Of a DNA stretch of 64,000 nt, positions 14,512 through 47,281 are shown one piece after another. The position numbers were made by a program, and so were the translations under genes. The stretch is from contig CAJINV010000004.1 in assembly GCA_905178155.1 (NCBI GenBank), forward strand, positions 8,832,411 through 8,896,410. Direction: 5' to 3'. How positions within the stretch are numbered: position 1 is the first letter of the stretch; the number at the start of each line of letters is the position of its first letter. The DNA comes from Amoebophrya sp. A120. Taxonomy: Eukaryota; Protista; Dinoflagellata. Under the pieces are notes generated by a model, which saw only the letters and a program-made list of their open reading frames with translations, did no database searches and was not told the origin of the DNA.

Positions 14512-15153
14512 CGAAATAATAGAAGCTGCGGGTGGACCACGACGACCACGCTCTTGTTCATCTGGTTTCTACGGCCGCTCCGGCCGGTTGATGTAGCAGG
14601 CAGCAGCGAAGATGATGGAGGGGCTGTCGTGCTTGCGCGGTAGTACTTCCGATGGCGGCTCACGCCCGTTTGCGAAAATAAGCACCGCAGTGCTGTGTGT
14701 GGTGTTCGCCTCAACGAGTTACACACGGCAAGTGGCGCGCGGCACGAGACGAGAGAACATTTCAAAAGCAGAGACTACTTCTTGAGAGGAACTTCACTGA
14801 GGGCACAGCGGGCTCTACACATGGCACGTTTTATTGAACAATGTTCCACCACGAACTACAGCAACTGCTAAGCTTAATAGGACCACAGCCAATCAATGCA
14901 ATAAACAAAAGATTCCGGCGCCCGCTTTGCCAACTGTACCTCCCCGGCTCTCCTGCGCCGGGGAAAATGCAGCGTCGGCGGAAATGGAATCTCTATCGCG
15001 CGTTGTTCCAAGTAGACCACGCAGTGCAATGCAACCAGGAAAAATAAAACTACCGATTTAGAAGGCAGTGCATAGGCCACACGACCACAGGGAACACCTC
15101 CTTCTTCACCACCACCTCTGCCACCTAAAAAGCCCCGTCGCACCAGCTGCCAT

Positions 15154-18100: not shown

Positions 18101-19348
18101 TGGATACATCCTGGATCTCTTCGGCGACGTCCCCCGGTCCGCCTTCACCGCGTTTCAGGTCGGCACCCGGAACCACTGGACGGACATCGTGCGGCACGCG
18201 CGGGACCGGTCCTCCTGGGCCTGGCCGTTGTCCATGCTCTGCATCACGAGCCTGAACCTGGTCATGTTTAATTTAGTGACGGCCTCGATGATTATGTCGG
18301 TGTTTGACGAAACCAGTTCCGACAAGGAGATCAGAAGGAAAGCGGCCGAAGCGAAGAAGGCCATGCACTGGAAGATTCTGGTGAACATCTTCAAAGCGAT
18401 GGACGAGGACGATTCCGGCGAGGTTTCGGCCCAGGAACTGGACCTATGCATAGGAAAAATCGATCTGGGTCTGGAACAGTGCAAGTTGTGATGCTAAGAC
18501 TGGAGAAGACAAAAATCTGTGTTGCATAGACGGCAAAAGATAAGTACCCACTTCTTAGAACCACGCAGAGGGCGGGATTTCTCATGCGGAATAGGGATTA
18601 AGGCGCTCTTGCGCAAGCTGGGATGCTTGTGGGCGCATGACGGGCCAACTTTGTGTTCCACGAGATGCGACGACAAACTTTGCTTTCGTCCCGACCCAGA
18701 CAGATTTGCACTTGATATGGCCATGCCATGAACAACAATCCAGCGCTGCAAAGAAGGTTGAACGACATCAACTTGCATCGGGTACTATACACTTTTCGTA
18801 TTTTTTCAGTGGAGTTCTTGTAATATTTCATGGTTTGTATGCAGAGTCACTGTTTTCCGCTTGAGATGCTGCTGATCTTTGAAAAGTCATTTCAGTTTTT
18901 TTCGACGCAAAATATAGATTCTGAAAACAAAACCACTTCCCAGGCCGCCATGGGAGATCTGTGGAGCATCCTCGACGTGAACGGCGACGGGGTGCTCGAC
19001 ATGGAAGAGTTTCTCGAGGGTATGCGGCAGATGGAGGGTCCCGCGAAGTCCTACGACCTGATCAAGATGAATGTGAAGTGTTCCGGGCTGCAAAAACGGA
19101 TTCATAAACTGGGTCACTGGTTCATGGCCACCATCCCGGAAGCCAAGCGACTCGCCATGCTGGTCGACAACACGCACGGCAACATGATGTCGCTGTTCGG
19201 GCTGTTGCGGCCGCTCGAACGGGACGTGTTGCGGATCGTCCGCCACATGGCGGAGGAAAACGAGCTGAAGACTGACGAGTTTGGCATGCCCACCATCGAC
19301 GATATCAGCTTCGGGGAAAAGATAACGATCGAGATGCCAGCGGGCTGA
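15154..19348 (+). CDS. Single-domain voltage-gated cation channel (Ion_trans) with C-terminal EF-hands
   Basis: After removing 9 elements and intron 18782-18943: S1 FEGCVAFFMVFNGVTLAL, S4 RLLRLLKLMRTVR, pore FQVGTRNHW, S6 NLVMFNLVTASM, EF-hands DEDDSGEVSAQE and DVNGDGVLDMEE. Start codon uncertain. Confidence 0.85.
15722..15874. mobile_element. Introner-like element, family C
   Basis: Family C TIR; DR gcggg/gtggg. Confidence 0.85.
15942..16097. mobile_element. Introner-like element, family C
   Basis: Family C TIR; DR tgatg. Confidence 0.9.
16269..16524. mobile_element. Introner-like element, family A
   Basis: Family A TIR with right end TTA; DR ggacg. Confidence 0.9.
16557..16870. mobile_element. 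Introner-like element, family F
   Basis: TATCCAAAGGAAAAAACCGCCCTTCCCAT...ATGGGGAGGGGGATGTTTCCTTTTGATA; DR tttgg. Confidence 0.88.
17098..17311. mobile_element. Introner-like element, family E
   Basis: TATCCAAGAAAAAAAC...GTTTTTTTCTCGCGATA; DR gacgg. Confidence 0.88.
17400..17648. mobile_element. Introner-like element, family A
   Basis: Family A TIR; DR cgatc. Confidence 0.9.
17700..17847. mobile_element. Introner-like element, family C
   Basis: Family C TIR; DR caccg/taccg. Confidence 0.87.
17898..18106. mobile_element. Introner-like element, family E (inverted relative to 17098)
   Basis: Family E TIR; DR catct/catcc. Confidence 0.88.
18445..18717. mobile_element. Introner-like element, family A (diverged)
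   Basis: TCTGGGTC/GACCCAGA core; DR ggacc/tggcc; removal gives ELDHAMNN. Confidence 0.8.
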
Positions 19349-27457: not shown

Positions 27458-29931
27458 ATGCCGGAAGACGCGGAGGGCCTCGGGAATTACAAGGGCGTTA
27501 TGCTCTGCAACCGCCCTGGCGCAGAACAGGTTGCCGAATCCAGTTCAAAACCCTTTGTTCCCGTCGGCCATCACGAGCCCGTCGGCGTCCCACCCCCGTA
27601 CAACAAGGGCGCAACCATCGTAGACAGGCAGTGGGCGAGTTCGCCGAGAGCAGCCAAGCCGAAAAACAAGATATACGAGAACCATAAAGATTGGTTGAAA
27701 AGTTTAGAGAAGCGTGGAAAAGAGGTGGAGGAGGAAAGGATAAGTAACGAGCTTAGTGCGGAAGAAAAAAAAGTGCGGTTGAAGGTAACTAAGCACTTCG
27801 TAATGATTTGTGTTGCAGGATACACCATGGAGTAGCTTTTATCAAGGGAACGCTTGTTGAAACGGGTTGTCAATGTCATGTGTCAGCGCATGTACGGTAT
27901 TACAATGAATATAACATCAAGAACCAGTGCAAAAAAAAAATCCCATGTCGTCAACATGAATGTTACTATCACCCAGGCCCTCGCGGATAAGTACCGAACC
28001 GACGTGCGAGCCATGATGAACCAAGCAACCGACGAGAAAAAGAAGAGTGCAAAGAAGAGGTCAATACCACTGTGGGTGAAGGAGCGATGGGACAAGCGAA
28101 TCTGTATAGCAAAAATTAAAATTGCTCTGTGATAGTGATTTACGCATGACAGAGTTCTTCCTGTGCTTTCTTCTTCAAGATAAGTAATCTTCTACTAGCG
28201 TAAAAATGCGTAAATGAATCAAATGATCGTGATCCTCCACAACAGTTGAGGAAGCAGTGAACCTGACCCGCACCACGCAGCAAACGGAGGGGGATTCGAA
28301 GGACGAACCTGGAAATAAAGTTCCTCCAATAGAACCGGCTGAAGACCCGGAGGAGCTACTCGACTTTGCGTCCTCGCTGGATTTTGAGCAGTTTGTGGAC
28401 GATTTGGAATTTCGGGAAGCGTTGTCCGTCCTGCGCGACCGGGCGAAAAAGCTGGAGCGGGAGGAGAAATTGTTCCAAATGAACGTGTATGCACTGCAAA
28501 TCTGTCTGGGTCTGAAAAGAAGGGGACTTGTGATGCAAATGTTCCATCATAGAACAAAAACCTGTCTTGCATGAGCAGCAAAATGTACCAAGGTTTTTGT
28601 CACCGGGAGACGGAAACGGAATTTCTTATGCAGGATAGGCATGGGTGGACTGGGCAAGCCTCCGCGAAAGCTGTGATGTGAGGGCATGCATGACAGGCAT
28701 CGCGGGTCATGTACAACTTGCGTGAGAAACTCCCTCAATCCTCCAGACTCAGACATAGTTGCAGTGCATAACGTGGCCGAAATGTTGGCAGAGGAGGGCT
28801 ACACGGGGGATCGCGCGCCAAACCTGTTTTTCTCCGAGGAGCCCAACGCGGTGCTGAGCAAGGAAGACCGGGTATCCTCAGCAACAACGTGCCCACCCCA
28901 TAGTCAAGATGGGGAATCTGCTACATACATCAATAAGCTTTGCCTGTTGCGCATGACAGCCTCGCAATCAGATCTCGCATTAATCATGCTGATACGAGCA
29001 TCACAGATTATCTCAAAACAACACTAGAAAATTCGTCTTATGGGTCTACTTCGCATGAGAAGGATTGTCATCATGCAGGTTTGCATTACAACTCTAGGGT
29101 GGGGGCGATTTTTCACAGGATGCCGGAGGTTGATGAAGATTTTGGCGAAAAAGGAGAAGTTATCCTCAGCAAAAACGTCTCCACCCCATAGTCAAGTTGA
29201 AAAATCTGCAATGCAAGTCTCCAAGTTTTAGGAGTTGCGCATGACAAGTTTCCATCTGCAGCGTAGTGCTGGTTAGCAAGGGAGGCCGCGTGAGAAGGTC
29301 GCTTTCTCTTCCTGTTCACAGCATTACAAATGCCAACACTGGATTGGAAATGCCTGTCATGGAGATGGGCATTACAAATCTTCCTGTCATGGCGGATTTG
29401 TATGGCAATTGTAGGGTGGGGACGTTTTTACACAGGATAGAAGTACCGGGCCCGCATGCCCGCCGGGCTGGTGGAGAAGTACTGGGGCGAGGTAGTGCCG
29501 GATGAGGAGCAGGTATGCATTGCAAATTACTTTCTCTGGGTCTACTGGACATACTGTTGCTGGTAGTTGAATCGCAGAGGAGGAGCTGCTTGTCCGGCGC
29601 AACACCAGCATGGGAAAATGTGCGATTCTTATTGCAGACTCACTCGTAACCGTAAGCCGCATGACTAGCTGATTTAGTATTTCACGGCATGACAAAAACA
29701 TTGGCCAATCGCATTCCAGGCATCATAAATCCTTGTTGTCCTTCTGCTTCAACTCTTGCATCACAAATCCAGACCCAGATCGATAATTGCAACGCATAGG
29801 ACGAGGATGAGGTAGAAACGGCCACCGACGTCTCACAGCTTGTGGACGATGTGATGCCCAAACTCAAAGCCATCCACTCCAAGGCCAGCGCAACCAAGGC
29901 GGTCACCACCGCGGTTGAGGGCAAGGAGTGA
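27458..29931 (+). CDS. Conserved-looking hypothetical coiled-coil protein (YKGVMLCNRP...LDFEQFVDDLE...LKAIHSKAS)
   Basis: Open frame after removing 4 elements and two GT-AG introns. Confidence 0.7.
28488..28770. mobile_element. Introner-like element, family A
   Basis: DR acgtg. Confidence 0.87.
28873..29122. mobile_element. Introner-like element, family B
   Basis: DR ccggg/ccgga; right end ATG variant. Confidence 0.82.
29161..29439. mobile_element. Introner-like element, family B
   Basis: DR gaagt. Confidence 0.9.
29514..29798. mobile_element. Degenerate family A element, also a valid GT-AG intron (29513-29799)
   Basis: TATGCATTGCAA..TCTGGGTCT / AGACCCAGA..TTGCAACGCATA; DR gcagg/ggacg. 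Confidence 0.75.
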
Positions 29932-31174
29932 GAAGCTGAAAAAGTGCACCAGGACGACGAGGAGCTGCGATGCACGGGACCTGCGAGACGAGCTGGCTCA
30001 AGCTGTGCAGCTGATGAAGTGTGTGCACAACTATCTTGCTTAGCAAGAACCGTTTTAGTATCCTCGTTTTGAATCAATTCATCAAATCCAAACGTCTATT
30101 TCCTCAACATCGTAATTGATGTAGTGCGGAAAAATAACTAATACACAAAAAACCGTTTTCATCATCAAAGCTATTTGCGATCAGGTCTGAATCTGGTTCA
30201 GATCTTGCGAGTACAAGACCCGTTTTCATCAAGTTTATTCACCGATCACACACGACGACAATGTTGTTTATCTAACTAAAAATCTGAACGGAGTCTATGG
30301 CGAAATGAATGTTGTAAATGCAATTAGATGGTGGAGAACAAGACGTGCTGCTGTACAAAAAGTGTTTCAATGGCCACCGCAAATGAACGCGAAACCAAAT
30401 AAAGTACTAGATCGTGCTGCCAAAATCAAGCGGAGCAGAATCAAGCTGTGCTGGGAGCGGCAAAGCCCGACGGGGGGCACAACACTCGAGGAGTTTTCAA
30501 TTTGTGATCACCCGTCGGTCTTAATGTGATTTGAATGTCAGATTAGCACCTATGAAATGAAATGAGACTACACCTTCTGAGTCGAGCCGATCCTTCGGAA
30601 TCAAGACATTTCAGCGAGGACAAGAAGGAGGTCATTGTCATGAGCGTGGAAATTTGAATTTCAGATCTGGCGCGGCTCTTCCCGTGATAGCAAAATGTTG
30701 ATCCCCTTCGGTGGTTCGTTCGCGAGTTTTCTGTTGCAATAGAATCTTTACCGATCATAAATCGTGAGAAATTCATTTTTCCGACTTCTACCGCTGACAC
30801 CTAGCAGCAGGTTCTTATTATTCCTTTTCTATTGGATTTGGCATTGCCTTTGGGCGAAAGTAAGATTCTTATATAATGCAAGAGCAAGAAGACGCGCCGT
30901 TTTTCTTCTGAGTGTGGGCCTCAGTAAAAAACTTCAAGTGAGTATAAAACTTCCCCCCGCATATTGACTTTTTTCTTTCGAAGCTACGGTTCGTAAATTG
31001 CTCCGCTTTATTTTTTCCAACTCATCGGGATATCAGTACCTTCCTCAATTTCTATTTCTTGAATTCGAGAAGTAGTAAAATTCAAGTATTAGTATTAGTT
31101 CTTCGTGTTGCAAGTTGGTCACTCCTTCTGTCAACAAAAACTATTATCACACATCACCCCACAGAACGAGAAGT

Positions 31175-32428
31175 ATGCTGCTGTTCTTGCGAACGAGCAC
31201 AGCCGGCTGGCTTGCCTGCTGTTTGCTTCGCTGTCCGTTCTCTGCCGCTGCCAGGGTTCTTTCCGGCGAAACAACATCTGCATCAAGTACAAGTGGGAGC
31301 ACCTCGGAAACCGCGCCCGCGCGTGCTGGGAAGGACAGTGCTGGTGCTCGTGTTTTGCGCAGTGTCAATATCGTGTCGAACATCCTTTCGTATGCAGATG
31401 GTGTGGTATCACGGGACCAGCTGCTGTTGCGGGACCGAGCACAAAAAAGGCTCAAGGATTATAGACAGCGAGGAGGATTCCCACTACGCCTGCTGGCCCA
31501 ATTTCTGAAAGGCGTGCTGAATATTTATAAAGGGCCCCAGCCGATGCCGAGTGGCGGCAAGAAGTTGGCGCACCGGAAGAAGTTGGCGCAGCACCGGGAG
31601 AAGTTGTCGCACCGGAAGAAGTTGGCGCAGTTGAACCGCAATACACGTGCCATCATCCGCCCGCCCAAAGCGCTGGACGCAGAGTAGACGTATGCTTGCC
31701 GCCGTTGGGGCAAGCACGCGCCAACGGAGGCCTTACTGAAAAATACCTGGGTGACTGAAGATTCTGAAGGTTTGGATGGTATGGTTCTCTATCCGGAGGA
31801 GTACTTCGTGAAAGGCAAAGGGCCAGCGAACGAGGGGCATCAGCACTGGGAGTTTACGGGAGATTTGAGCCATCTCGGAGACTCGATCCACAGAGACGCC
31901 TTTCCCCTGATTTTCGCGGCGGAGAATGAGCTGAGAGAGTCCTCGACTACCCGGGTCGGGTTCCGAGGCTTATCGGAAAAGGAGCTAGCGGCTGCTTATC
32001 TGCGGCATCAAACCCCCCTTCCCAGTGACCATGTAGTTCCTGCTTCGCTGCTGACGGAGGAGCCGTACTTTGAGGCGCGCGGGCTGAATTATTATCCCTC
32101 GGAATATCCACGACGGATACCGCCTCATGATACGGTTGATGAAGACCTTGTGTTGAAGTTCTCCGCTACACCCTTCAGCAGCGCCGCTCTGAAGCGCCTT
32201 CTGGATCCGCAGAAAAATCGTTCCCGGGGGCGATACTACTTCCCGAAAAATTGGCTCATTGCAGAGGGAGAAGGGGTGTTCACCTTCATCCGTTGCGGAG
32301 AGCCTTCAGACTACATCAAAAAGAGGGACTACTTCGACACTCCTGGTTGCGAAGCGACCGTCTGCTTGCCCGCGGGAGCGGAAGAAGAACTTGTCGCGGC
32401 GCGCCCGCCAAACACAGACGAGGATTAA
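31175..32428 (+). pseudogene. Secreted-protein paralog 1, intronless, with in-frame TAG at 31685-31687
   Basis: Signal-like MLLFLRTSTAGWLACCLLRCPFSAAA; same frame continues after the TAG; both paralogs have CAG at this position. Confidence 0.7.
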
Positions 32429-33523
32429 GCGCCGTAGTTAAAAACTACCTGCGAGGAGTACCTTATCAACGTATTTTAAGGTCTAGATTTATTAAGATGG
32501 TGCTCGTGCTGGCGGCCGCTGGTGTGCACCTAGGTTTGTTGTTCAGAGCTATTTATACGAGTCTTGTGGGAATACTAACTAACTAACTTATTTATGTGCT
32601 TTCGTCGTGTATGAAGATTTAGGTCCTTATGAACACGAAGAAGACCTCCACCTCCACCTCCTGGAATGTGATTGTCAGCAAAGTGCCCAATTGCTGTAGC
32701 GTCTTTCATACGCCTTCTGAAGTCAATGGGAACTACTACACCGCTGAAAGGGAGCAGCACGATGAACTAGACTGCTGAAAGGGCAGGGAGATGACGGAAA
32801 ATAAAAACTTCTTCAACTACGCCTACACCTTGAAGGTCTGTGCTACAAAGATCATCGTCTAGTTTTTGCTCCTCGTGCTGCTGTTCGTTGCTCAACCTAA
32901 TCTCGATGAACAACGACAAACAAGCCTGGCTTTAAATTACAGATCGAAGCGATCTATGCGGAATCTAAATTTCACTGAGGAGATCATCGTCGTGAGCATG
33001 GAAAGTTCAGATCGATATCGCGGTTCTCGCCGTAAAGAAAAGATCTTTGACAAAGCAGCAAAAATGTCGATCCTTTCGCTCCAATGGGTCGGTCGTGAAT
33101 TTTCTCTTGCAATATGTAGAATTTCTACCGATCATACTGAGATATTCACTCCGACTAGCGATCACACACACAGCAGCAGGTTTTTTTCTTTATCAACTCG
33201 AGAAAGTATTCTGTAAGATAATTGTATAAAGCAAAAGCATCGTAATTGTTTTCCTTCAGTCCGGGCCTGATTAAAATACTTCAAGTGAGTATAAAACTTC
33301 GCGCATAGTTAGTAACTTTTTTCGTTCGAAGTTGTAGTTTGTATACCTGCTCCTGTTCATCTTTGCTACACTGCTCACCGGGATATCAGTATCTTCGTCA
33401 ATTTCTATTTCTTGAATTCGAGAAGTAGTAGTAAAATTCAATTATTAGTTTCTCGTGTTCAGCACGTGCTTACTCATTGCTTCAAAAAATATTTTATCAC
33501 ACACCTCCAGATCATCGAGAAGT

Positions 33524-35110
33524 ATGTTGCTGTTGCGAACGAGCATCAAAGCCGGCTTGCTTGCCTGCTGTTTCCTGCTTCGTTGTCCGTTCTCCGCCGC
33601 TGCGGGGGTAGGTTTTTCCGGCGGAAAAGCGTCTGCATCAAGTAGAAGTGGTAGCACTAGCACTAGCCCGCGCGCGCGTGCTACGGACGAGGGCACTTCT
33701 AGCAGTACTGCTGTTTTTGACGACGCTAACATCGCGTCGAACATCCTTTCTTTTCCGGTCGGAGAAGCGGAAGATCCTTCGCGGGAGCAGTTGCGGGCCC
33801 GAGCACAAAAAAGGCTCGACGATTTTCGACGCGTGGCTGCGAAAAATCTGAGCCAGCAAGAAGTCTCACAGAGCGGCGGTGTACTGCAGCAGTTGGCCCA
33901 GTTTTTGGTTGGCGCGCTGAACGAAAAGTCCTCGCCGGGCGGCCGGAAGAAGGTGGCGTGGCTGAACAAGGACACTTCGCGCCTCGTTCCCGCGTCCACC
34001 GGCGCCGCCGGGAAACAAGCGCTGGACGCAGACCAGACGCATGTTGCTTGCCGCCCTTGGGGGAGTCACAATACAGATGAGATTTTCCTCCTCGAGACAC
34101 CGTGGCCGTCCGACGGCCCCCAGAAGTTGTTCACCGATAAACGGACGGTTCTAAATGGGATGGTTCTCGATTCGGCGGAATACAAAAAAAAGCTACCGGA
34201 AATGCAACACTGGGTCTTCGAGTTATCCTGAGTAGAAACGCCTCCACGAGGTGCGTGGACCACCCCATAGTTAAGATGGGAACTTGGCAACACAATAAAT
34301 CCAGAAGCTCTTCGAGTCACCACGCATGACAAGCTTCTCTCTGTAGTGTAGAAGTGCAGGATAGCTGCGAGGAGGACAGCCGCGGCGTTGCAAATGCATC
34401 TGCTTCGTCTCCTGTTTACAGCATTACAAATTTTTACAAAAGAAGAGGACAACGAGAAATGCCTCTCATGGGGATCATGCGCATCCCAAGCGTTGCTCCG
34501 TATGCAAATGTGCATCACATCAACTATGGGTTGGGGACGTTTATTTTCCTTAGGATACACAGGCGATGTAGACCAACTCGAAGCGTCGTCATCTTCGGGG
34601 TTCCACAAAGACAGGTTTCCGCTGATTTTTGCCTCGGTCGAGACGGAGATGCCGGAGGAGTTTCGACGCAGCGCGGATCTCCCGGAGGAGTTTCGGCGCA
34701 GAGCGGAGGCGTTTCGGCGCAGAGCGGCTGGGTATGTATATCCGTTCTTCGAGGCGCGCGGGCTAGGGTATTATGTTCACGGCGCCCGCGAAGGCGAACG
34801 CGAAGATCTGGTGCTGAAGTTTTCCGCGTCCCCCCTCAGCTTGGATTCGTTGCAGAGTCTTGCTACCCCGGAACGAAGTTTTTTTCTTGGTCGGTGGAGC
34901 TACCCGCGCAATTGGCTCCTTGCGGAAGGAGACGGGGTTTTTACCTTTATCCGCTGTGCAAGTCCTGCAATTCCGCGTCGGGATTCTCGAATTCCATTTC
35001 CTACTTCTCGACCCAACGGTTCCACTTCCGAGGAACGCACCTTTTCATACTTTTCATATCTTTACTCTAGCAGTCCTGGGTGCGAGGCGACTGTCTGCTC
35101 GCCCGCCTAA
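33524..35110 (+). CDS. Secreted-protein paralog 2 (1 element)
   Basis: Signal peptide; shared motifs REQLRARAQKRLDD, CRPWG, FEARGL, DLVLKFSA, NWLLAEGDGVFTFIRC and GCEATVC. Confidence 0.8.
34224..34557. mobile_element. Introner-like element, family B (diverged)
   Basis: Family B TIR; flanks cgagt/cacag are a decayed DR; removing 5 nt gives WVFTGD, matching paralog WEFTGD. Confidence 0.8.
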
Positions 35111-36665
35111 GGGGGGGAAAAATTGCTCCTCGGGGCTGCACGTCCGTCAGCTGGGGACGAGGATGAAGTAATATCGGAAGTAACAAAGTAATATACTTCG
35201 AGGACCACGTCGCACCTTGGCAAAGTATTCTAAGTATGTAGACTTTAAATTCAAGGTCGCAATTTGTTCTTCATCGAGGTAGTTCTTAATACACAACAAA
35301 ACAGCTGCACTATACGGCTTGCAACTGTCGATCTTATTTTTTACGCGGCTTGTTTGTCGCGATAGGCCTTGTCCGTCGTATCATATTCGTAAATCGTCAA
35401 CGTGGATGAAGCCGAAACATATTACATGCCGTGAAATCATTATTGCGAGAGCGGAAATACAGAAGACAACTAAGAACTACCGGAAAAATGGTCCATATGG
35501 GCGGCAGGACCTGGCGCAAGGTGAAACTAAGTAAAGTAGGTATGTGGATGAAATCAGCATTTTCAATGGCTTGCTTTTGTCAGGCACTGGGACTAAGACT
35601 ATCAGTAATGTCGGGGGGAGGCTGGCAGGTACTACAATGTCATTGAAGCTGGTTCAATGACAATGAAGCTGGCAAGAGGTACATCAAGCATTTATTAGTG
35701 GACACGTTTTGGTTTATCTTTATTTGCTTTCGTCGTGTATGATTTAAGTTCCGTATGAACACGAAGAAGACCTCCACCACCTCGCGGAGTGTGATTCTTT
35801 ACAGACCAAGTAGAGGAGGTGTCCGTCAGCTAAGTGCCCAATTGCTATAGCGTCTTTCATGATACGCCTTCTGAAGTAAATGGGATTTTGACCAAGATGG
35901 ACACCGTTGCAAGGGCGAGGACATGAAAGAAAATAAAAACATCTTCAGCGTCTACACCTTGAAGGTCTGTGCTACAAAGATCATCGTGTAGTTTTTACTC
36001 CCCGGCGTGCTGCTGTTCGTTGCTCAACCTAAGTAATCTCGATGAACGACGACGGCAAACAAGCCTGGCTTTAAATTACAGATCGAAGCGATCTATACGG
36101 AATCTAGTGAATCAATTTCGCCGAGGACAAGATCTCCGTCGTGAGCATGGAAAGTTCATATCGATATCGCGGCGCAAACTTGCCGTAAAGATCTTTGTTG
36201 GTAAAGCCGCAAAAATGTCGATCCTCTCCAACGGATCGGTCAGGAATTTTGGCGATCAAATTATTTTCATCGATGATCATGAGATGATGAGAAATTCATT
36301 CCGACTAGCGAACACACGGAGCAGCAGCCGGTTTCGCTTCTTTGTCCTTGGTTACAGTATTCATTTGAGAGATTGTATATTATGCAAGAGCCCATGCTTT
36401 TCTACTTCTGAATCAGGCTTTGAGTACAAAACTTCAAGTGAGTACTTTAGAATTCACAATAAAAATTTGCGCATACTCATACTTTTTTGTTTTTCCGTTC
36501 GAAGCTGCTGTAGTTTGTGAGCTGCTCTCGTCTGCTAACGCATCGGGATATCAGTATCTTCGTCAATTTTGAATTCCTGAATTCGAGTAGTGGCTTTCTT
36601 GAATTTTTCCACTCGTAGCGCAAGTGCTTACTGCATCAAAAAAAATTCACACACCTCCAGAAAGT

Positions 36666-39600
36666 ATGTTGCGTTTGCGAACGAGTAAAGCCGGCTTGCT
36701 TGCCTGTGGGTTCCTGCATGGCTGTCCTTTCTCTGTCGCCGCGGGGAGTTCTTCTGGCGGAGCCTCCAGTAGAAGTTCGAGCGCAGGCAGCGCATCATCG
36801 TCGTATGTTGACTTTCTTCCGGACGATAGCATTCTGCGCTCGGCGGCGGCTCTTTCTGATGACCATCCGACCAAGGTGGCGTCTTTGCGCGAGATTGTTG
36901 GCAACGAGGTTTGTGATGAGGCAATTAAAAGCGCGCTACGGCTTACACGTGGGAACGAAGAAGATGCGGCGCATATGCGAGTGCACGACTCCACGACCCT
37001 CCCCTCATTTACAGAGCATGAACAGCAATACAAGCGTCGACAAGATGAATGCGGAGGGTCTGCAGGACAAATTCACACAGATTTGTAGTGCTGTGTGGAG
37101 GGCCGGCGTTGAAAGAACCTGTCTGTCATGCAGAAAGTATGCCAAGAACAAAAGCAAAGATAAAGACGGGACGCGAAAAGAAAATTTTGCGTGACTAATT
37201 ATTTGGGGAAGTAGGGGAGTCCTCGTGCACTCTCATAGCGCAGATTCTGCTACTCGCAGGCGACCAGGGCGGGGACGATGACGGAACCGAAAGTAGTGGG
37301 ACAGATGAAGAAAGAACGGACCACGGTGCTACTACACCTCCAGGCAGCTCTGCTGCTCTTCCCACATCCAGAGCGAGGTCCTCGACCTCGCGCGGGCGGC
37401 GCTCGCCGCGGAGCCGGTCCGGCAGTGCGGTTTCGCGAATTTTTCAGTCACCAACGTCCCGTCGTACCAAAGAAGTCTCGGGGGCTCCTGCCAAGGACAG
37501 GGAAGACGCAAGAGGACGCGGCCAGGGGGACGTAGCGGAGCTAGCGGCGAAGCTCGGAGCGCTCGAAGTGAGCGAAGTTGTAGACCCCGTAGAGCAGAAC
37601 ATCGTAGAAACGACCATGGGCGGCGCAGGTAAAAGTGGGAGCTGCACGTCCGGGCCCGCGTCCGCTTGTAGTTCCCGTACTTCTCGAGAAATTTGGGGCC
37701 GCGGTAAAATCGTCGCCAATATCGTCCCTTTCGCCGCCGGAGTAGCGGATCTGCCGCGGGAGCAGCTGCGGGCCCGAGCACAAAAAAGGCTCGACGATTA
37801 TGTGGGCACGATTCCGAGCAAGCACGTGAGACTGAGACAGGAAAATGGGGTATTGCGCCAGCTGGGCCGCGATTTTTTGGCTGGCGTGCTGCAGGAAGGG
37901 CTGGCGCGGGAAGAGAGCCGGCGGACGGTGGCGCAGCTGAACAGGGTCAGTAAACGCACCGCGGTCCCCCGACCGTTGGGTACGGAAAACAAGGCTCTAC
38001 TGAATGCACAGCAGACCTATTCCTGCCGCCCTTGGGGGAGTCGTCCCGAAAGTGAACCGGTTCTCCTGCGGTCGCCGGGCCAGACGTCTCACACCATGGT
38101 GTTGCACGAAAAAGAGTATTTCAAAAAGTTACCGGAGATGCAAGAATGGACCTTTATCCTGAGTGAAAACGTCCCGCCCACGATTCATAGACGTCAAGAT
38201 AATTACATGGCAGTTTATTACACAAGCCAAGAACTACATGTTTTGACTGTTTTGCGTGAAAACCTTGCCTCTCTGGTTGTGTAGAAGTCTCAGTCAGCTG
38301 GAGCAGTTGCGTCACAAATCGACCCTGAATGAGGTTGACAATAGCTTGCCGGATAGTTAAAAAAAAAAGTTAGCATCAGAAAATGCTTCCTGTTCTCATG
38401 GAGTTTGCTGCGCATGAGACACAATGTGGACCTGTTGCAGATTCACACGACAAAGAACATGGGGCGGTGCAAAAATTCCTTCAGCATGACAAATATGGGG
38501 TGGGGGCGTTTTTGCGCGTGATCACCATCACGGGAGATTTAAGCCGTCTCGAAGGCTGGTCTACCTCCCGTTTTCGCTTGCCGTACCATATTGAAAAGTG
38601 CCCGCGCGACCCCAAATGTCGAAGTGCTTGTATTGCAAAATTTTTCAATGCTGGAAACATATCCGACCTTGCATGTATCAGCATGACAGGTTTTCAAGCC
38701 AGAGGAGCGGAAGTCTGTGTGGCACAGCGCCAGGTAGTATGTAAGCAGTAATCGTCTTATTGAAGTCGTATAAATGGCTTTAGGAGATTCTAAAGCAAAG
38801 CGCGTCGCGTTCCGTTTATCATCCCCCTGGCATTTGTTTTCCATAGCATTGCAAAAAGTTTCCCTGGGGACGATGAAAATTTGCAATTCAAACTGTTCGG
38901 TCACGTCTGGTGGTGGGGCGGTATTTTTCATTTTGATGCGCCTCTGCTTTTCTATGCGGAAGAAACAATGTTGGAACACTCGATTGGCAACCCGGTCGGG
39001 TTTCGCGGATGGCAGAAAGGAGCAATCCTTTCCCGTAGTTCCCAGCCGGGCCCGGCTCCGGAGGAACCATTTTTCGAGGCGCGCGGTATCCTGAGTAAAA
39101 ACGTACCCACACCAGAGTCAGGATGGGGATTTTGCAACACAAACCTAGGAGTTTTGTGAGTCACGCATGACAAGTTGCGCTCTGCAGTGTAGTGCAGGTT
39201 AGCAAGTGCAGCCGCATCACAGATTCCTCCGCTCATCCTGTTCACAGCATCACAAATTCCAAAACACGCTTGGAAATGACTCTCATGGGCATGCGCATTA
39301 CAAGTCTTCCTGTCTTTGCAAATCTGCATTACAACTCTGGTGTGGGTACGTTTTTACTCAGGATACGCGGATTGAGATATTCTCGACACGAACGCGGAAT
39401 GCATGATCTGGTGCTGAAGTTTTCCGCAATCCTATCAAAAGGAAAAATCCCCCCTCCCCATATCGAAAACGAAATTTGTGATGCTGTATTTGAGTACACA
39501 AATCGACTTGTAATGCTAGAAGGCCAAGAGACGCAGCTGTGGCCTCGTTTGAAGGCAATTTGTCATGCTGTTCCCCACTTCCAGCTGCCCCCTGTCATGC

Positions 39601-40552
39601 TGAAGATGCAAGGCTTTCCCACGCCAACCAGCACTACAGTCCGCATCTTTTCCCTTCTAGCATGACAAAGCTGATTTGTGGCCACAAATCTGCATCACAA
39701 ATCTCTAGTGTGAGTATGGGGTGGGTGGATTTTTCACTTTCATAAATCCCCGTAAGCAGGGACACGCTGGAGGAGCTGTTAGATTTCAAGAGAGGTATTA
39801 CACAGCGCTCGCTATGAAATGTAAAAATGTCTGGGTCTGGAAGAATGCAACTTGTCATGCTAAATCTGAAGCATGCAAAAATCTGTGTTGCGTGTTTACC
39901 AAAAGCTGTCCACTTTTGACCTAATCGAGAGGCAGTTTCTCATGCAGGATAGGCATGAGAAAGGTCTCGCAGAATCTGTCATGCTATGTCCCACATACCA
40001 GACGAGACCTCGTGGGTCATGGAAAACCTGCATGACAAAATCTGGCAATCGTCTAGACCCAGACATTTTTACAGTTGATAATCGCAGTTTCCGACCAATT
40101 GGCTCCTTGCGGAGGGAGACGGGGTTTTCACGTTCATCCGCTGCAGGGAAAACCCGGGAGGCGCCATGGCAGGGGCTCGCTTATCAAATGTAAAAATGTC
40201 TGGGTCTGGAAGAATGCAAGATTTGTCATGCAGCTTTTCCATGACCCATGCGGTCTGGAATGCAGGACCTAGCATGACAGATTCTGTGCGATCTCTCTCA
40301 TGCCTATCCTGCATGAGAAACTCCCTCCCGATTTGGTCAAATAAACTGGACGACTTTTGGTAATCATGCAACACAGATTTTTGCATGCTTCAGATTTAGC
40401 ATGACAAGTTGCATTCTTCCAGACCCAGACACTTTTACATTTGATATCCCTTTGCGGATTCTGATTTCCGCAAATACGGCGACCCCACGAACAAGTATTA
40501 TCACAGTGTGGGCTGCGAAGCGGCCGTCTGCAGCTTGCCCATGCCCGCTTAA
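36666..40552 (+). CDS. Secreted-protein paralog 3 with UBA-like insert (7 elements)
   Basis: Frame restored through 7 elements to GCEAAVCSLPMPA*; same family motifs as paralogs 1 and 2. Confidence 0.8.
36974..37237. mobile_element. Introner-like element, family D (diverged)
   Basis: DR gcgca. Confidence 0.85.
38155..38523. mobile_element. Introner-like element, family B (diverged)
   Basis: DR acctt/accat; removal gives WTFTGDLSRL. Confidence 0.8.
38584..38938. mobile_element. Introner-like element, family F-like (strongly diverged)
   Basis: Weak TIR; DR tgccg/cgcct; absent from both paralogs; removal gives RLPLLFY. Confidence 0.65.
39087..39365. mobile_element. Introner-like element, family B (young, perfect 32-bp TIR)
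   Basis: TATCCTGAGTAAAAACGTACCCACACCAGAGT exact inverted pair; DR cgcgg; site is empty in both paralogs. Confidence 0.97.
39433..39744. mobile_element. Introner-like element, family F
   Basis: DR aatcc. Confidence 0.9.
39813..40080. mobile_element. Introner-like element, family A
   Basis: DR ctcgc/atcgc. Confidence 0.9.
40182..40446. mobile_element. Introner-like element, family A (inverted sister of 39813)
   Basis: DR tcgct/tccct. Confidence 0.9.
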
Positions 40553-41912
40553 ATGACGAAGGATAAGAAATCACTTCTCTTCACAGGAGACCGGGGAGGA
40601 AGCATTTGTTCAACCTAAGTTTTTTACTATCGAGCTCCTTGCACTTAATAAGCACTGCAAATCTATAAATTATTTCTATTTATTGAGTACTACTGCTTTC
40701 GTCGTGTATAATTAATTTGAGCAAAAGGAGTAACTTTGAATCTTATAGTGATGACAAGGTTAAAAAAACAAAAACAAAACGATCAAAGAATCGCAATCTA
40801 CATCTTTCGCACGACATTTTTTCACGAGGTTCGTTACAACTGTAGTCAGATGTGTTTTTTTTCAACAGAGTTAGTGCATTTTTATAGTTTTGAAGCGAGT
40901 ACGCTACCAGCAGCTAGTTATTTTTGTCAAGATTCTTTTCGCTGAGGTATTTTTATTGAAATAGCGCTAAAGGAAAAAGGTGACGGTGAGTAATCGCGTT
41001 TCCACCACAAACAAATAAACAAAAACAAGAACATGACTATGAAGATCTCGAACCCTGGTATTATAATTGAAGCATTTATTCCATTTGAAATAACGCCTGC
41101 TGAAATGAATTCAGGCAACAGGCGCAGCAGCACATTGGGGATGAAGACCGTGGAACATTTACCGCCGGCAGCAACACGCACAGTAGCACTATCACCAGTC
41201 CAGTTACTGCGTTGCATCGAACGAGAAAAATATTAGACCACGTTGGGATCATAATATTATAAGTGCCGCAAATGCGATGACGCAAACAGCTGCTGAGTTA
41301 CTGCAAGCCGGTAAATAGGGAAGTGAAGAAAACGAAGACGTTGAAGCGCGAGAAGTAGAAGCGCGAAGGAAAACAAAATCGCTTTCCCACCAGGTGAAAA
41401 GAGTGTCAACGTAGCACGCCTTTATTTCGCCTGAATTAAATAAAGAGAGTGAAATGAAAGTAAAATACCCCATCTAGGGTGTTGAGTAAGTCATTCACTC
41501 ACGAGTCAAAAAGAAACACTTCTACCGTCGAAGAAGCATCAAAGTGCAGAATTTTTGTTTACCAGCGTAGATAAGTACTGCGCCACATTTTGGGAACAAT
41601 CACACCAGGAATGAACGCCGCTGTAAAAAGGGGACGGGGACAGTGAGCCTGCCTTTCACTACATTGTGAAGTTCGCTACGATCATCGTCGTTTTTTGATT
41701 GGTCATGTAAGAAATTACTACGGTTAATGAATTAATTTCAGGAGTACACGAAGTTCTTGCGCCGGGATCTCATTTTTATTTTTTGTAGAGCTGGAGTACT
41801 TGTCTTCCGCAGTCGCATTTCGGTAAGTCAAGGTCTTGTACAGTCGTGAAGTCGAGCGAGGTGGAATTGGTTTAGCACACATTCGAAATGATCCTTCGGA
41901 GTAAAAACGGGC

Positions 41913-44257
41913 ATGAAGATCTCTGCGAGGAACATCAAACGTTTTAATTGCTCGTGGAAAAAGGGACAAAGGCGTTCCTCGCTTCTCCAAAGATGGTTCA
42001 TCTTTCTGCGCGTCGCGCAGTTTCTGGTGCGCAGCACCTTCGGCGCAATGAGCGGGGCCGGGCGAGAAGAGGATCATCGGGGGGTGGAGGGGGCACGACA
42101 GCATGGTGTGAAGAAAACAAAACCGTTGTTCCGCACTCCGACCCCCTGTCTCCGCACCGGATCCGGCGACCTAGAGTACGGCATTAACCCGTTGGAAAGC
42201 GCGCTTGATGGGTCGAGAGTGTTCAAACACCACGAAATTTTCTGCCACTTTCCCCCCTTCGTCGCGCCAGCGAACCGCACTATTCTGTACGAGTTCAGCG
42301 GCCTCAAGGTCCCCGTCCGCTTCGACTGCGCGAACCAGCGGCAGTGGCACGTCTGGGGCACGTTCGATTTGGGCGTGAAGGCGTATAGAACCTCTGATGG
42401 GGTGTTGCTCACGGAGCAGCAAGCGCGGAGCCGGCACTTTGAGAACTTCCGGGACGTGCCCGGGTTGACCAACATGTTTGCTTCCGGGGACAGCACTACA
42501 AGCAGTCTCACGTTCGCCGAGATGTTCCCCCCCTACACCTACTACGCGCAGAGCATGGACCGGCGGTACCAGTGTCACGTGCACGCGGCCATGCTCCAGG
42601 CGTTCATGCCAGTCTACCAAGTGCCGCTGCCGGTGATGGACGAGGAGTACGACGAGCATGTGCAGGTGTACCAAAGCGTCTGGGAATACTGGAAGTCGCA
42701 TGCGGACGGGATCATAAGAACGACCAAGGTGTGGAACTACAAGAACGGGAGGTTTAGACGTGGGAAAGATGTTGAATCAAAATCTCTTCAAAATCCTAAA
42801 CCTGTACCTGCTTCTTCAGCCTCCACTGCGGCCGCGAAGCCAGTCCCCCACCGTCCCTTCGTCTTCGTCGAGGCTGGCGGGCGCTGGGGCACGTGGGGGT
42901 TCCGCGCGTTGCAGGCCTTGCGGCAATTTGCGCTGACTCAGGACGATCAGGCCCCCGCCGGTGGCGGTGGCTGGACCACAGACGAGAGAACAAGAAGCGA
43001 AGCAGTTGTTCCTGCAAATAAAATTCCATACCACATAACGGATAAAAACGCGTTTCTTCATTTCTTCGAGATGAACCCGATTTTCTGCGACGGGATCCGG
43101 GAGATGGCGAGAGTGAACCACTTCCCACTGTCCACCCACAGGCTCCGCATCTACTGCCGCCCCTTCAATCTGGAGTTGTTTGGCTCGATTCTGGCGGATC
43201 GGCGGCATACGCCGGTCATCGACGTTCTGGACATGGATATTCAGGGCGGGGAGTCCATCCTCTCGGATGTGGACAAAACGTACCCCCTGTTGTGGGACCT
43301 GATGTGCACAAAGGTGAAAAAAGTCATCATCGGGACGCACAACAAATTCACACACGAGGCAATCGTCGAAACCTTCCTCGGGCGGAAGCGGAAAAGTTAT
43401 GAAGTGGGTGCACCAGCAGCTCCTGTGTGGGAGTTGGTCGCCGAGATGCCGCACCGCCACGCCGTGCAAGCAAACATATGGATTGCAAAAATGTCTGGGT
43501 CTGGAAGATTAGAACTTGTCATGCTAAAACCAAATCATGGAAAAATCTGTGTTGCATGACTGCCAAAAGCTGTCCTCTTTCGACCAAGTTGGGAGGGGGT
43601 TTCTCATGCAGGATAGGCATGACAGAGACCTCACAGACTCTGTCATGCTAGGTCCTGCATTCCAAACCTCGTGGGGCATGGAAGATATGCATGAGAAGTT
43701 TGCATTCTTCCAGACCCAGCCATATCTGCATTTGATAAAACAGCACGTTCAGCAACTGGAACTTCACGATGGTGGCAAAAGCGATGGTACCAAAATGAAA
43801 AATCCCCCCTCCCCATATCGAAAGGGAAGTCTGTGATGCTGTATTTGCGTACACAAATCAGCTTTGTCTTGCAGTAGAGCACCCCAGGCAGATACAAAGC
43901 CCGGAAAGGGGTGGCTTGAGGTAGGCACTTAGCATGGCAGACGTCTGCCCCATTGGCGCATCAGCATTACAAATCTCCTGCGAAATGCGGCGGAAGCTCT
44001 GGCTTTGCTCTCTTGCAAGACAAACTCGATTTGTGACCACAAACCAGCAGCGCAAATTTTCGAAAGTACGCCTTTTCGATATGGGGAGGGGGGATTTTTC
44101 CTTACGATAGATGGCGAGGGAACGACGTCGTAATACGGGCAGTTATATCGCTGGTGGTGAAACAGAAACAAGTCGTGAGGATGAGGAACAATTTGGCATG
44201 ATCGCGAATCAGGATGGAGAACTAGTTTTCAGGAACTTAAACCTCATCGGGAAGTGA
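41913..44257 (+). CDS. FkbM-like SAM-dependent methyltransferase
   Basis: FVEAGGRWGTWG (motif I), FEMNP, IDVLDMDIQGGE, VKKVIIGTH; C-terminal QDGELVFRN after removing 2 elements; start uncertain. Confidence 0.75.
43477..43737. mobile_element. Introner-like element, family A
   Basis: DR aaaca. Confidence 0.9.
43788..44109. mobile_element. Introner-like element, family F
   Basis: GAAAAATCCCCCTCCCCATATCGAAA / TTTCGATATGGGGAGGGGGATTTTTC; DR gatgg. Confidence 0.9.
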
Positions 44258-44702: not shown

Positions 44703-47281
44703 ATGGCAAGGCACTCTATTCCCGTTCGCCTTGTCACCTTGTTTTCCTTCTTTTCTTTGTACCTCCAGAACGTTCGCGCTCTGAAGTTGTGGAGCTGGAT
44801 CACCGACGGGTGGCTGCCCCGAGTAGTGTGAGCAAAAACGTCCCCACCCCATAGTTGTCATGCTAATCTACACGCTTAAAATCTGTCTCATGCGGAGCCC
44901 CACGAGAAGCATTTTCTAGCCGCTTTTTGGACTTTGTGATGCTCGAATCAGCATGAGCTGCTAGACCTGTGATGCTGCTCCGCTGGCTAAACAGGACTGC
45001 GCTACGTGGCCAAACTTGTCATGCCCAACAGCCAAAGCTTGTTGATTTGTCTAGCAGATTTGCCATCTTGACTACGGGGTGGGGACGTTTTTGCATAGGA
45101 TACCGAGCGGAATTTGTTCTAACGCGAGACTTGTTCGACCCGGTGCGAGACCGCGTGGCCCTCTACCCTCGCGCGTCGCGGGACCTGCAGCTGCGAAACG
45201 CATTGACTGCGGGGGTGGCAGCTGCTGCGCAGGATGACCTTGTTCACGTGCAGCCCCTGGGACGGGCGACCTCCGAGGAGGCACCGAGTCCGACGGGAAC
45301 TGCGATCAATTATGCGGGAACTTCTTCACAAGAAGTACTAGCACCAACTGGTGGAGCAGCTGCTGCTAGAAGGGCTGCTGCTGCTACTGCTGCTCAAGAG
45401 GCGGGTGCTGCTAGTGGAGGTGGTCGTCGTACTGCAGGAGAACACCGAACAAGCGAAACAACTGAGGGGCGCAGCAGTGACGAGAATTCTGGAAGTATTA
45501 ACACGAATCATGCAGAAGCCAGTGCGCCGTCGATGGCCGCCAGCGGGATGATAGTACAACAGGAACAACTACAAGCACAGCCACAGCACGAGTCCGACAA
45601 TAACGATAACCGCAATGACAAGTCGCTCATTCCGCACTGGTTTGATTTCCTGCGTTGCCTCCCCGTGTTCGGGCCCATTTTTCACTCGGGCATGAATCCC
45701 GACGACTTTTCGGATTTCGTGGTGGATCCGAGCTGGGACGTAGCCAGGAAAAAACACTCATCCCCATCCATTTTTTGCATGACAAACACTGCAACGTATG
45801 CACGTTTTGCATGACAAATTGGATGGGGCTGGGTGTTTTTTCCTGGATAGAATGTGCAACACGGGCATTATTCCAGGTGGTTTCCCTGCTTTAACACGGT
45901 AGAGGACCCGGACGAGGGATCCGGGCCCCTGTGCACCGAGCTGACCAACCTGCGCGAGCTTCAGAAAAACTGTCTCTGTTGCTCCGCGACGCTGCTCACC
46001 TGCGGTACGGGCGGCATGCTCGGCACCTTCCCCGACCCGCGCATGATCGGCGTAATTTGGGCGGCCCACGTGGGCGGCTGCGCGGCCTGTCACCTCATGG
46101 TGATCAGTGCGCAGAAGCTGCACGAAAAGTTTCAGCCCGCCGAAGAGAACGACGACGCGGAAACCCGGCCTTGCTGTCTCGGAGTCTGCCGCCTGCGGCA
46201 GCGCCGCCGGCAGCAGGTTCTTGCTGGGGAAGAGGGAGCAGAGGGAGATCTAGAGGCGGATCAGGCCGTTGCTGAGCGTGGTGGCCTTGGACGAGTACAG
46301 CTGCATGCGTGCCGCCGCTGCAGTTCCTTCCTCCGTTCCCACCTGCCGCAAGTCGCCGGTCTGAGTAAGGAATTCAAGCGCCTTCCCCGAAGTAGAGCAG
46401 AGCTTATCAACCGGCGGTTGCCCGAGGGCATCTACCTGCCGGAGGCCGACGACAGCACATTCACCTCACCCCGTCAAGCAGGCGCGCCGGGCACAAGACC
46501 TCTCGTTGCTGGGTTGTGGTGCCTGCAGCTCAGCCCTGCTGACGCCCGCGGTGTGTTCCGCGGCACGGAGGGGGGCGAGGCAGATCCCAATGTTCCGTGC
46601 CCTGTTTGTGCGGAGATGATGGAGCTCCACGGACGAAGATCTCATGAACAGCAATACCGGCCCGGTAAAAATGTTGCTGGGGCTTCATCATCTGCGGTGG
46701 ACACGAGGAGCCGTGGCGGGGAAGGCTCCTCTAGTACTGCAGGTTCAACATCCACTTCTTCATTTCCTTCCCGTTCCAGTATCGGAATTTTGCAGTGCCC
46801 GGGTGAACACGCGATCTGCCGCGGCTGCGCGGAGAATCTCTCCGTCCGCCACATGTGGGAATGCCCCACCTGCCGTGGCTTTGTGGGGGCGCGAACGACG
46901 GTGTGTAGCTCTTTCTCTCGCAGCTGTTCAGTTGACGAAAGACAAGAGCAGCTTCGTGCAAGAGCTGGTCGTGCCGCTGGTGCTGCCTTCAGCGGCCCGC
47001 TCGAGAGGGTGGACGCTGCCGACCCAAGCGAGACGACAGAAGCAGCAGGAAGTGCTGGAGGTACTAGTGCCACGTCGGTGGCGAATGGACGACGCCCATC
47101 TTCGAGGGCCTCGAGGCACTTTGTAGGTTGGGTGCTAGCCGCAGCGCCGGCAGCGGACTCAGCTGCGGCATCGCAGGAGGCGGATCTGTTTTCTCCTCCT
47201 TCATATTGTTCCGGGGCAGCAGGAGCTTTTCAACACGTTCTCGGAGAAGCGAAGCCGGTGCAACAAACCATGACTTTATGA
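44703..47281 (+). CDS. Signal-peptide and transmembrane RING-finger (C3HC4) protein, putative E3 ligase
   Basis: CPVC...CPGEHAICRGC...CPTCR; hydrophobic N-terminus and mid-region; 2 elements. Confidence 0.7.
44824..45102. mobile_element. Introner-like element, family B
   Basis: DR ccgag; left end TAG variant. Confidence 0.87.
45741..45849. mobile_element. Short 109-bp element (family G), also a GT-AG intron 45740-45850
   Basis: CCAGGAAAAAACAC..CCCCATCCA / TGGATGGGG..GTGTTTTTTCCTGG; DR ggacg/gaatg. Confidence 0.8.

Follow-up and report, generated by a model that had tools for sequence, protein, structure and literature searches.

How can a gene take up seven insertions in its coding sequence and still encode an intact protein? 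This question is raised by a locus in a 64,000-nt stretch of the Amoebophrya sp. A120 genome (the window, to which all coordinates refer unless a contig is named). Three tandem gene copies, all on the + strand, hold 0, 1 and 7 short elements (Table 1), counts first given by a reading of the letters alone (the sequence-only reading) and upheld here. The feature is real: transposons of a known, intron-forming class account for it, and the gene family they sit in is lineage-specific and uncharacterised. We are fairly confident that an Amoebophrya-specific gene for a likely secreted protein was triplicated in tandem long ago, that introners, here non-autonomous TAT...ATA DNA transposons, entered the locus after duplication, and that they are spliced out exactly. 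The elements themselves have already been published, so they are ordinary for the A120 genome. The value lies in what the locus adds, a fixed splice register and recurrent insertion sites, both testable additions with moderate support.

The elements are Amoebophrya A120-type introners, as published by Farhat et al. 2021 (PMC7789003). For A120, that work reported 29,850 introner copies of many families, with a length of ~240 nt, making up 17% of the assembly. Their inverted repeats start with TAT and have an A run ~8-10 nt in, direct repeats of 3-5 nt lie at the exon/intron border, and the spliced ends are non-canonical. The window showed the same features and a similar share of DNA. TAT...ATA elements with a perfect 5-nt repeat numbered 28, against 0-2 in each of 50 dinucleotide shuffles, and a more sensitive search found 42 elements, or 16.6% of the window. 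Three finder hits, at 33223, 47277 and 55068, had poor ends and repeats that matched at 2/5 positions, and were discarded as false ahead of the counts; the element at 29514 was added by hand to several counts, and that at ~45742 to one count. In the terminal inverted repeats (TIRs), the A run follows after ~7 variable bases; it is shorter in the TATG..GTGCAC family, e.g. in E1, the first of the seven copy-3 elements (E1-E7). Thousands of partial element matches were present in the DNA-like run X5. Among the eight elements of copies 2 and 3, the 5-nt repeats were perfect in three, matched at 4/5 positions in three, at 3/5 in one and at 1/5 in one. The sequence-only reading had described element 39087-39365 as a perfect-TIR element with a duplicated cgcgg. 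It was right about the structure (25/25 terminal bases match, and CGCGG flanks both sides) and missed that these elements are spliced introns of a published class.

Removal from RNA was seen in spliced contigs from runs X1-X4, which represent one sample and whose RNA status was guessed by the tool. All seven copy-3 elements were skipped in X1-X4 contigs, the copy-2 element was skipped in X1, and the skipped length equalled the element plus 5 nt in 8/8 junctions. DNA-like X5 pieces read unspliced through the copy-2 element and E1-E3. Splicing at the observed joints gave open reading frames (ORFs) of 415 and 579 amino acids (aa) without a stop. With all eight elements skipped and the frames restored, the elements are therefore working introns of the known class. 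None of the runs listed with this locus was on record as RNA. The raw RNA run X8, with the same species label, was neutral, matching the element repeats only and none of the exons.

Table 1 Features of the locus in window coordinates. Direct repeats are the 5-nt repeats flanking each element; L001 and L002 are contigs of a related genome.
Feature	Position	Strand	Remarks
Copy 1	31175..32428	+	0 elements; in-frame TAG at 31685-31687 splits a 417-codon frame
Copy 2	33524..35110	+	415-aa ORF once one introner is removed; equals protein P0002
Copy 3	36666..40552	+	579-aa ORF once seven introners are removed
Copy-2 intron	34223..34561 (element 34224-34557)	+	direct repeat decayed (1/5); single possible junction placement (-1/+4); perfect 5-nt repeat at the L001 site
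E1	intron 36973..37241, element 36974-37237	+	perfect repeat; also in L001
E2	intron 38154..38527, element 38155-38523	+	repeat 4/5; also in L001; 5 nt from homologous copy-2 site
E3	intron 38583..38942, element 38584-38938	+	repeat 3/5; also in L001
E4	intron 39086..39369, element 39087-39365	+	TIR and repeat both perfect; site empty in copies 1, 2 and L001 ortholog; 1 nt from unrelated L001 copy-2 element
E5	intron 39432..39748, element 39433-39744	+	perfect repeat; also in L001/L002
E6	intron 39812..40084, element 39813-40080	+	repeat 4/5; empty in L002
E7	intron 40181..40450, element 40182-40446	+	repeat 4/5; empty in L002; 88% identical to E6, opposite orientation
Upstream block	31027..31043 (also 33380, 36545)	+	conserved; contains CAG
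16-nt downstream motif	32597..32612 (also 35725, 40694)	+	invariant in all five gene copies

The position of the cut was narrowed down from the junctions. The three joints with perfect repeats allow six placements each, and the five with imperfect repeats allow 1, 2, 4, 4 and 5. The only placement common to all eight lies 1 nt before TAT and 4 nt after ATA (-1/+4). The copy-2 element fixes this register alone, as its repeats match at 1/5 positions; at the corresponding site of L001 the repeat is perfect. This element is spliced exactly despite its decayed repeat, and therefore an intact duplication is not needed. The -1/+4 rule also opened ORFs of 392 and 590 aa in the related genome and, at another place in the window (15076-18488), one of 558 aa that spans 8 elements. 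In Table S4 of PMC7789003, 9/9 predominant non-canonical A120 boundaries begin with N-T and have varied ends, as the rule predicts, and none begins or ends with TA. The junctions point to a TIR-anchored splice rule that holds even where the duplication has decayed; taken alone, they support it modestly.

Several points weigh against a fixed register. Five of the 8 junctions are informative and 1 is unambiguous; the other four would agree by chance with a probability of ~9% (hand calculation). All spliced contigs come from the one sample of guessed RNA status, and minor isoforms are hidden in contigs. The Table S4 boundaries may reflect an aligner preference for GT, CT or AT starts, and PMC7789003 describes the splice sites as variable relative to the hairpin, by 1-5 nt. 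Splicing could then occur anywhere within the 5-nt repeat, with the agreement seen here arising by chance. We regard this as unlikely given the exact splicing of the copy-2 element and the uniform N-T starts, none of them TA, in Table S4. The -1/+4 register is not stated in the examined parts of the literature on Amoebophrya introner splicing, and we make no claim that it is unpublished. PMC7789003 leaves the splice position relative to the repeats variable or unknown, whereas one register fits all junctions here. The decayed duplications thus pin down a register left open in the original paper, and they yield a genome-wide prediction on the splicing mechanism.

Under the -1/+4 register, GT-AG ends, the U2 hallmark, occurred at 0/41 window elements. 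The first T was invariant in 42/42 elements, and its 3' mirror base varied in 3/42, a small asymmetry that points to constraint at the RNA level; like Table S4, it supports the register independently of the junctions. In the mechanism we propose, the cuts would likely fall 1 nt ahead of TAT and 4 nt past ATA at any target sequence. As 1 + 4 is the duplication length, any insertion in either orientation would restore the original mRNA, and for the same reason insertions would be nearly neutral and accumulate unevenly among genes. Element density in the window was very uneven: the 558-codon frame at 15076-18488 holds 8, and frames of 1380 and 1289 codons hold 1 and 0. The element would bring a donor-like N|TAT(C/G) with it; its symmetry would also provide a 3' signal with constant spacing to the acceptor. 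We favour the U2/U6 spliceosome as the machinery, with the terminal stem and the end motifs replacing GT/AG recognition; the end motifs, helped by the stem, would set the cut.

For the nonconventional introns of euglenids, removal by an endonuclease/ligase has been proposed that is independent of the spliceosome, guided by structure and recognises the terminal stem; such an enzyme would also fit the missing GT-AG ends here. It would further agree with the strong fold of a young element (z -7.6 against shuffles), with the report that U1 small nuclear RNA was not detected in A120 (PMC7789003), and with the use of a stem plus fixed spacers in Euglena (PMC12501133). Old, weakly folding elements are nevertheless still spliced (copy-2 element z -2.9, E2 z -0.54), the T that is invariant at intron position +2, followed by an A (+3), resembles a donor site, and nearly all spliceosomal proteins are present (PMC7789003). 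Such an enzyme is conceivable, and we find it the less plausible option. E2 also tells against part of our own proposal: it is spliced though its fold is no better than that of shuffles. Splicing can thus do without a strong terminal stem, which weakens any model with the stem as the only ruler.

In full, the proposed splice code reads N|TAT...ATA-NNNN, set by the transposon ends and not by GT/AG or the duplication. Insertion could then occur anywhere in an exon and in either orientation with the mRNA unchanged, and it would recur at the same few positions of homologous genes beyond what the local 21-nt sequence explains. We give this combined statement an even chance of being correct. If it is true, the splicing of tens of thousands of non-canonical introns without detectable U1 becomes directly testable.

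The Euglena nonconventional introns (PMC12501133, PMC11282704) likewise have terminal complementary motifs, fixed asymmetric spacers, no GT-AG, repeats resembling target-site duplications (TSDs) and a probable origin from miniature transposable elements with inverted repeats (MITEs). They belong to an unrelated lineage, and their motif is CAG/CTG with N3 and N5-6 spacers, compared with TAT/ATA and spacers of 1 and 4 here (PMC12501133). The purine preference at the Euglena exon start was not evident at repeat position 5 in the window (23/41). The TIR/TSD introners of Micromonas and Aureococcus (PMC11282704, PMC9860276) are likewise MITE-like, and their splicing removes the element plus one duplication. 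They take one splice dinucleotide from the target and have canonical or GC-AG ends, whereas no target dinucleotide is needed here. PMC7789003 reports that no transposase was found in A120, and none turned up here, where no search for one was made; this counts against the reading favoured here. The MITE/TIR type of DNA transposon is supported by presence/absence polymorphism with a single target copy at empty sites, which was found for E4, E6, E7 and several sites in flanking genes.

This polymorphism came from a close relative, which shows ongoing introner gain. A scan of metagenome contigs gave 131 pattern matches, among them two relatives, L001 and L002, which together span the orthologous locus at 91-97% identity in aligned blocks. 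Gain and loss were not separable between A25 and A120 in PMC7789003, whereas this relative polarises the gains. Its copy 3 contains E1, E2, E3 and E5, and has single empty target sites at E4, E6 and E7. Copy-3 orthologs differ by a synonymous divergence (dS) of 0.056, compared with 0.9-1.3 between paralogs. E4, E6 and E7 were therefore gained long after the duplication. These private elements have the best TIRs (23-25/25, against 14-20/25 in shared elements) and siblings elsewhere in the window at 84-88% identity, by which they look youngest. Over ~17 kb of shared locus, 10 elements were shared, 5 were found in the window only and 8 in the relative only, and 1 site held a different element in each.

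Besides the shared element, copy 2 of the relative carries three that are its own; one of these lies in the 3' untranslated region (UTR). That last element (L001 7111-7361) lies just past the conserved copy-2 stop, in a 3' UTR that still resembles the copy-1 coding tail. The relative thus holds 3 coding elements (+1 in the 3' UTR) in copy 2 and 4 in copy 3, so the 0/1/7 asymmetry noted in the sequence-only reading holds for the window and is not stable between genomes. The split itself is mildly uneven (length-weighted multinomial P 0.036) and within the spread among genes of the window. The copy-2 region is more diverged between the genomes (33150-36000 vs L001 4750-8300; dS 0.22, upstream identity ~70%) than copy 3 and its flanks (dS 0.04-0.10), and the relative's copy 2 may be an older allele or a sister paralog.

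The 0/1/7 split and the absence of elements from copy 1 would also be expected if the ancestral gene had held many elements, which copies 1 and 2 then lost precisely via cDNA recombination. At least 3 independent precise losses would be needed per site. In addition, three sites are empty in an ortholog at dS 0.056, the youngest-looking elements are the private ones, the relative has acquired a set of its own, and copy 1 retains the shared upstream and downstream non-coding DNA, unlike a retrocopy. Such an origin of the pattern is extremely improbable, and a loss of single old elements remains conceivable. For the 39087 site, the sequence-only reading had proposed either insertion with a 5-nt TSD after duplication or precise loss. 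Insertion is supported and loss disfavoured, the site being empty in copies 1 and 2 and in the relative's copy 3.

The idea that the paralogs serve as built-in empty-site controls stood for this one element. The insertion site GAGGCGCGCGG is present in each paralog (at 32072, 34751 and 39076), and the empty sites are identical at the nucleotide level. It did not stand for the other 7/8: the copy-2 site and E2, E3 and E5 can be aligned between paralogs at the protein level only, and E1, E6 and E7 lie in segments that align poorly.

Insertions also recurred at nearly the same positions. The codon alignment places the copy-2 lineage's three coding insertions at distances of 5, 1 and 9 nt from insertions in copy 3, each with its own duplication. 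The two elements of the 1-nt pair are of different families; their identity of 54% falls in the range for shuffled sequence (47-55%). The simulated chance of three such near-coincidences was 0.0003-0.0006 with the whole gene allowed and 0.005-0.007 with the 3' half only; counting just the two best pairs, again in the 3' half, it was ~0.015-0.017. All of these tests are post hoc, and a divergent loop has to be aligned for the 9-nt pair. A further case is found in the next gene, where unrelated elements at window 43477-43737 (261 nt) and L002 4043-4193 (151 nt), 42% identical, occupy the same base with the same 5-nt duplication (rough chance 0.005-0.013). This same-base pair could be a parallel insertion or a replacement of one element by another; replacement cannot explain the offset pairs.

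Two explanations for the near-coincidences were rejected. Intron sliding was rejected for the 5-nt pair because each element's own duplication matches its own position. Local target sequence carries 0.75 bits of information over 21 positions, and a matrix trained on 34 other window sites left the chance unchanged. Introners in general are biased toward nucleosome linkers (PMC9860276), and such a bias is the likeliest candidate cause. Parallel intron gains at the same or nearby positions have been reported in fungi, within 15 bp, and in Micromonas and Daphnia (PMC4457414, PMC4540971). Unlike those, the present gains lie between paralogs and close strains, have distinct duplications and in two cases involve different element families. 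Such repeated insertion at almost the same place matters for the question of whether introns at shared positions must be of common descent. Elsewhere, independent insertions in the two genomes (43783-43787 and 43103-43107) were found at sites 680 nt apart in the same 9-nt context. A short element (~110 nt) with a TAG-type start, at ~45742-45851 in the window, is absent from L002.

The three units are not assembly artefacts, because the paralogs are ~50% identical in protein with dS 0.9-1.3, depth in X5 is even across all three (~41-49x, pieces without differences), and the locus was found again in the related genome. Dating by synonymous divergence, suggested in the sequence-only reading, identified them as old paralogs, with copies 1 and 2 closest (dS 0.89).

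The encoded family had not been recognised in the sequence-only reading, which thought that it might be a lineage-specific parasite effector. Lineage specificity was supported within the searches run, in which the family is confined to Amoebophrya. Word-based searches, among the matches listed, and a profile search of 1.84 billion representatives (7 matches at E<=0.001) returned only this locus, its relative and P0008, a distant fourth paralog on another A120 scaffold (E 3.5e-12). P0002, P0003 and P0008 are named in a source as Amoebophrya sp. A120 proteins. The sequence-only reading had also called for profile and structure searches and regarded a housekeeping match as fatal to its view; no library family and no solved structure matched. 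Sequence searches of Pfam, PHROGs, NCBIfam and PDB gave nothing near threshold. Two AlphaFold2 models were of low confidence (predicted local distance difference test scores 31 and 40), and the second had no Foldseek match at E<=0.001. The N-terminal extension specific to copy 3 (36666-36968) gave a weak UBA-like Pfam hint (E 0.076, below the curated cut-off).

All full-length members have a short hydrophobic start, resembling a signal peptide, and no later membrane span (P0008 judged by eye). In the three copies, the N-terminal 9-residue core has a mean hydropathy of 2.1-2.7, and no 19-residue window exceeds 1.1 after residue 40. Secretion of the family, as predicted from hydropathy, is plausible. 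The start is followed by a low-complexity linker, a helical block and a ~250-aa domain with four conserved cysteines, and the cysteines and several motifs are kept in P0008. The ratio of nonsynonymous to synonymous divergence (dN/dS) between orthologs was 0.73 and 0.85, compared with 0.00 and 0.40 in two neighbouring genes. These features suggest, weakly, that the protein would most likely be an extracellular one, held by disulfides and evolving fast, with a role at the surface or in host interaction. This suggestion is weighed down by the shortness of the hydrophobic cores and by the dN/dS values, which fit relaxed constraint equally, while the control of 0.40 may include a mis-spliced stretch. 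Four gene ids (three of them guessed neighbours) were not found in the supplements of two expression papers. It is reasonable, though unproven, to regard the family as a candidate for host interaction.

A more specific function, that of an ADP-ribosyltransferase-like effector, was suggested by a language-model feature search. With the copy-1 C-terminal frame, it returned two clusters labelled as ADP-ribosyltransferases (0.90 and 0.88), and F-R-G, F-S-A-T and E-G-E/D occur in copies 1 and 3 in an order resembling that of these enzymes. R-S-E ADP-ribosyltransferases have a conserved Arg, a Ser-x-Ser/Thr and a catalytic Glu. Copies 2 and 3 carry Asp at the second acidic position and thus depart from R-S-E, and P0008 lacks the Ser and the second acidic residue, its Arg region failing to align. 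Moreover, only 101-112/256 features were shared, the Pfam label applies to 20% of one cluster, a repeat of the search using copy 2 found no match, and the library and PDB sequence searches were negative. We therefore hold this function to be very doubtful.

Copy 1 has an in-frame TAG, present in X1 and X5 contigs, which the sequence-only reading did not remark on. An RNA-like X1 contig covers the copy unspliced (31048-32797, 0 differences). Copy 1 is most likely a recently broken, still transcribed copy. Alternatively, it could be fully translated, via stop-codon read-through or Gln reassignment as in Amoebophrya ex Karlodinium. The TAG falls on a Gln column of the paralogs, the part downstream of it shows purifying-type divergence (dN/dS 0.25-0.43), and the copy is transcribed. 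A ciliate-type genetic code was rejected, as the long ORFs of the window (1380 and 1289 codons, with 64 and 67 Gln) contain no TAA/TAG and encode Gln by CAA/CAG alone. The available text of PMC12005148 reports A120 to be without a suppressor tRNA, and the related genome is missing this copy altogether. Full translation of copy 1 is improbable on this evidence. A point against a broken copy is that its private changes after the TAG are still mostly synonymous (13 vs 7), so the stop is either recent or read through. In L001 (4452-4787), ~340 nt of unrelated sequence lie where copy-1 upstream DNA joins the copy-2-like upstream region.

The non-coding motifs shared by the three paralogs, also noted in the sequence-only reading, were confirmed upstream and downstream of each copy (Table 1). 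The 16-nt downstream motif is unchanged while the copy-3 flanks diverge, and it has no other occurrence in the window at <=3 mismatches. As it lies inside RNA-like contigs, it is a candidate 3' UTR signal and probably a 3' UTR element. An Rfam search of 29800-42000 gave 0 matches at E<=0.5. The positions 31048 and 33401, where contigs begin, were rejected as transcription starts, since both also occur in X5 and are therefore graph breaks. A conserved GTGAGT lies ~95 nt before the CAG of the upstream block, ahead of each ATG (30939-31036, 33286-33389, 36438-36554). With GTGAGT as donor-like sequence and CAG as acceptor, the pair may mark a putative canonical 5' UTR intron. Expansions of short tandem repeats, all in frame, are present in copy 1 (18-21 nt, 31555-31636) and in copy 2 (21 nt, 34660-34730).

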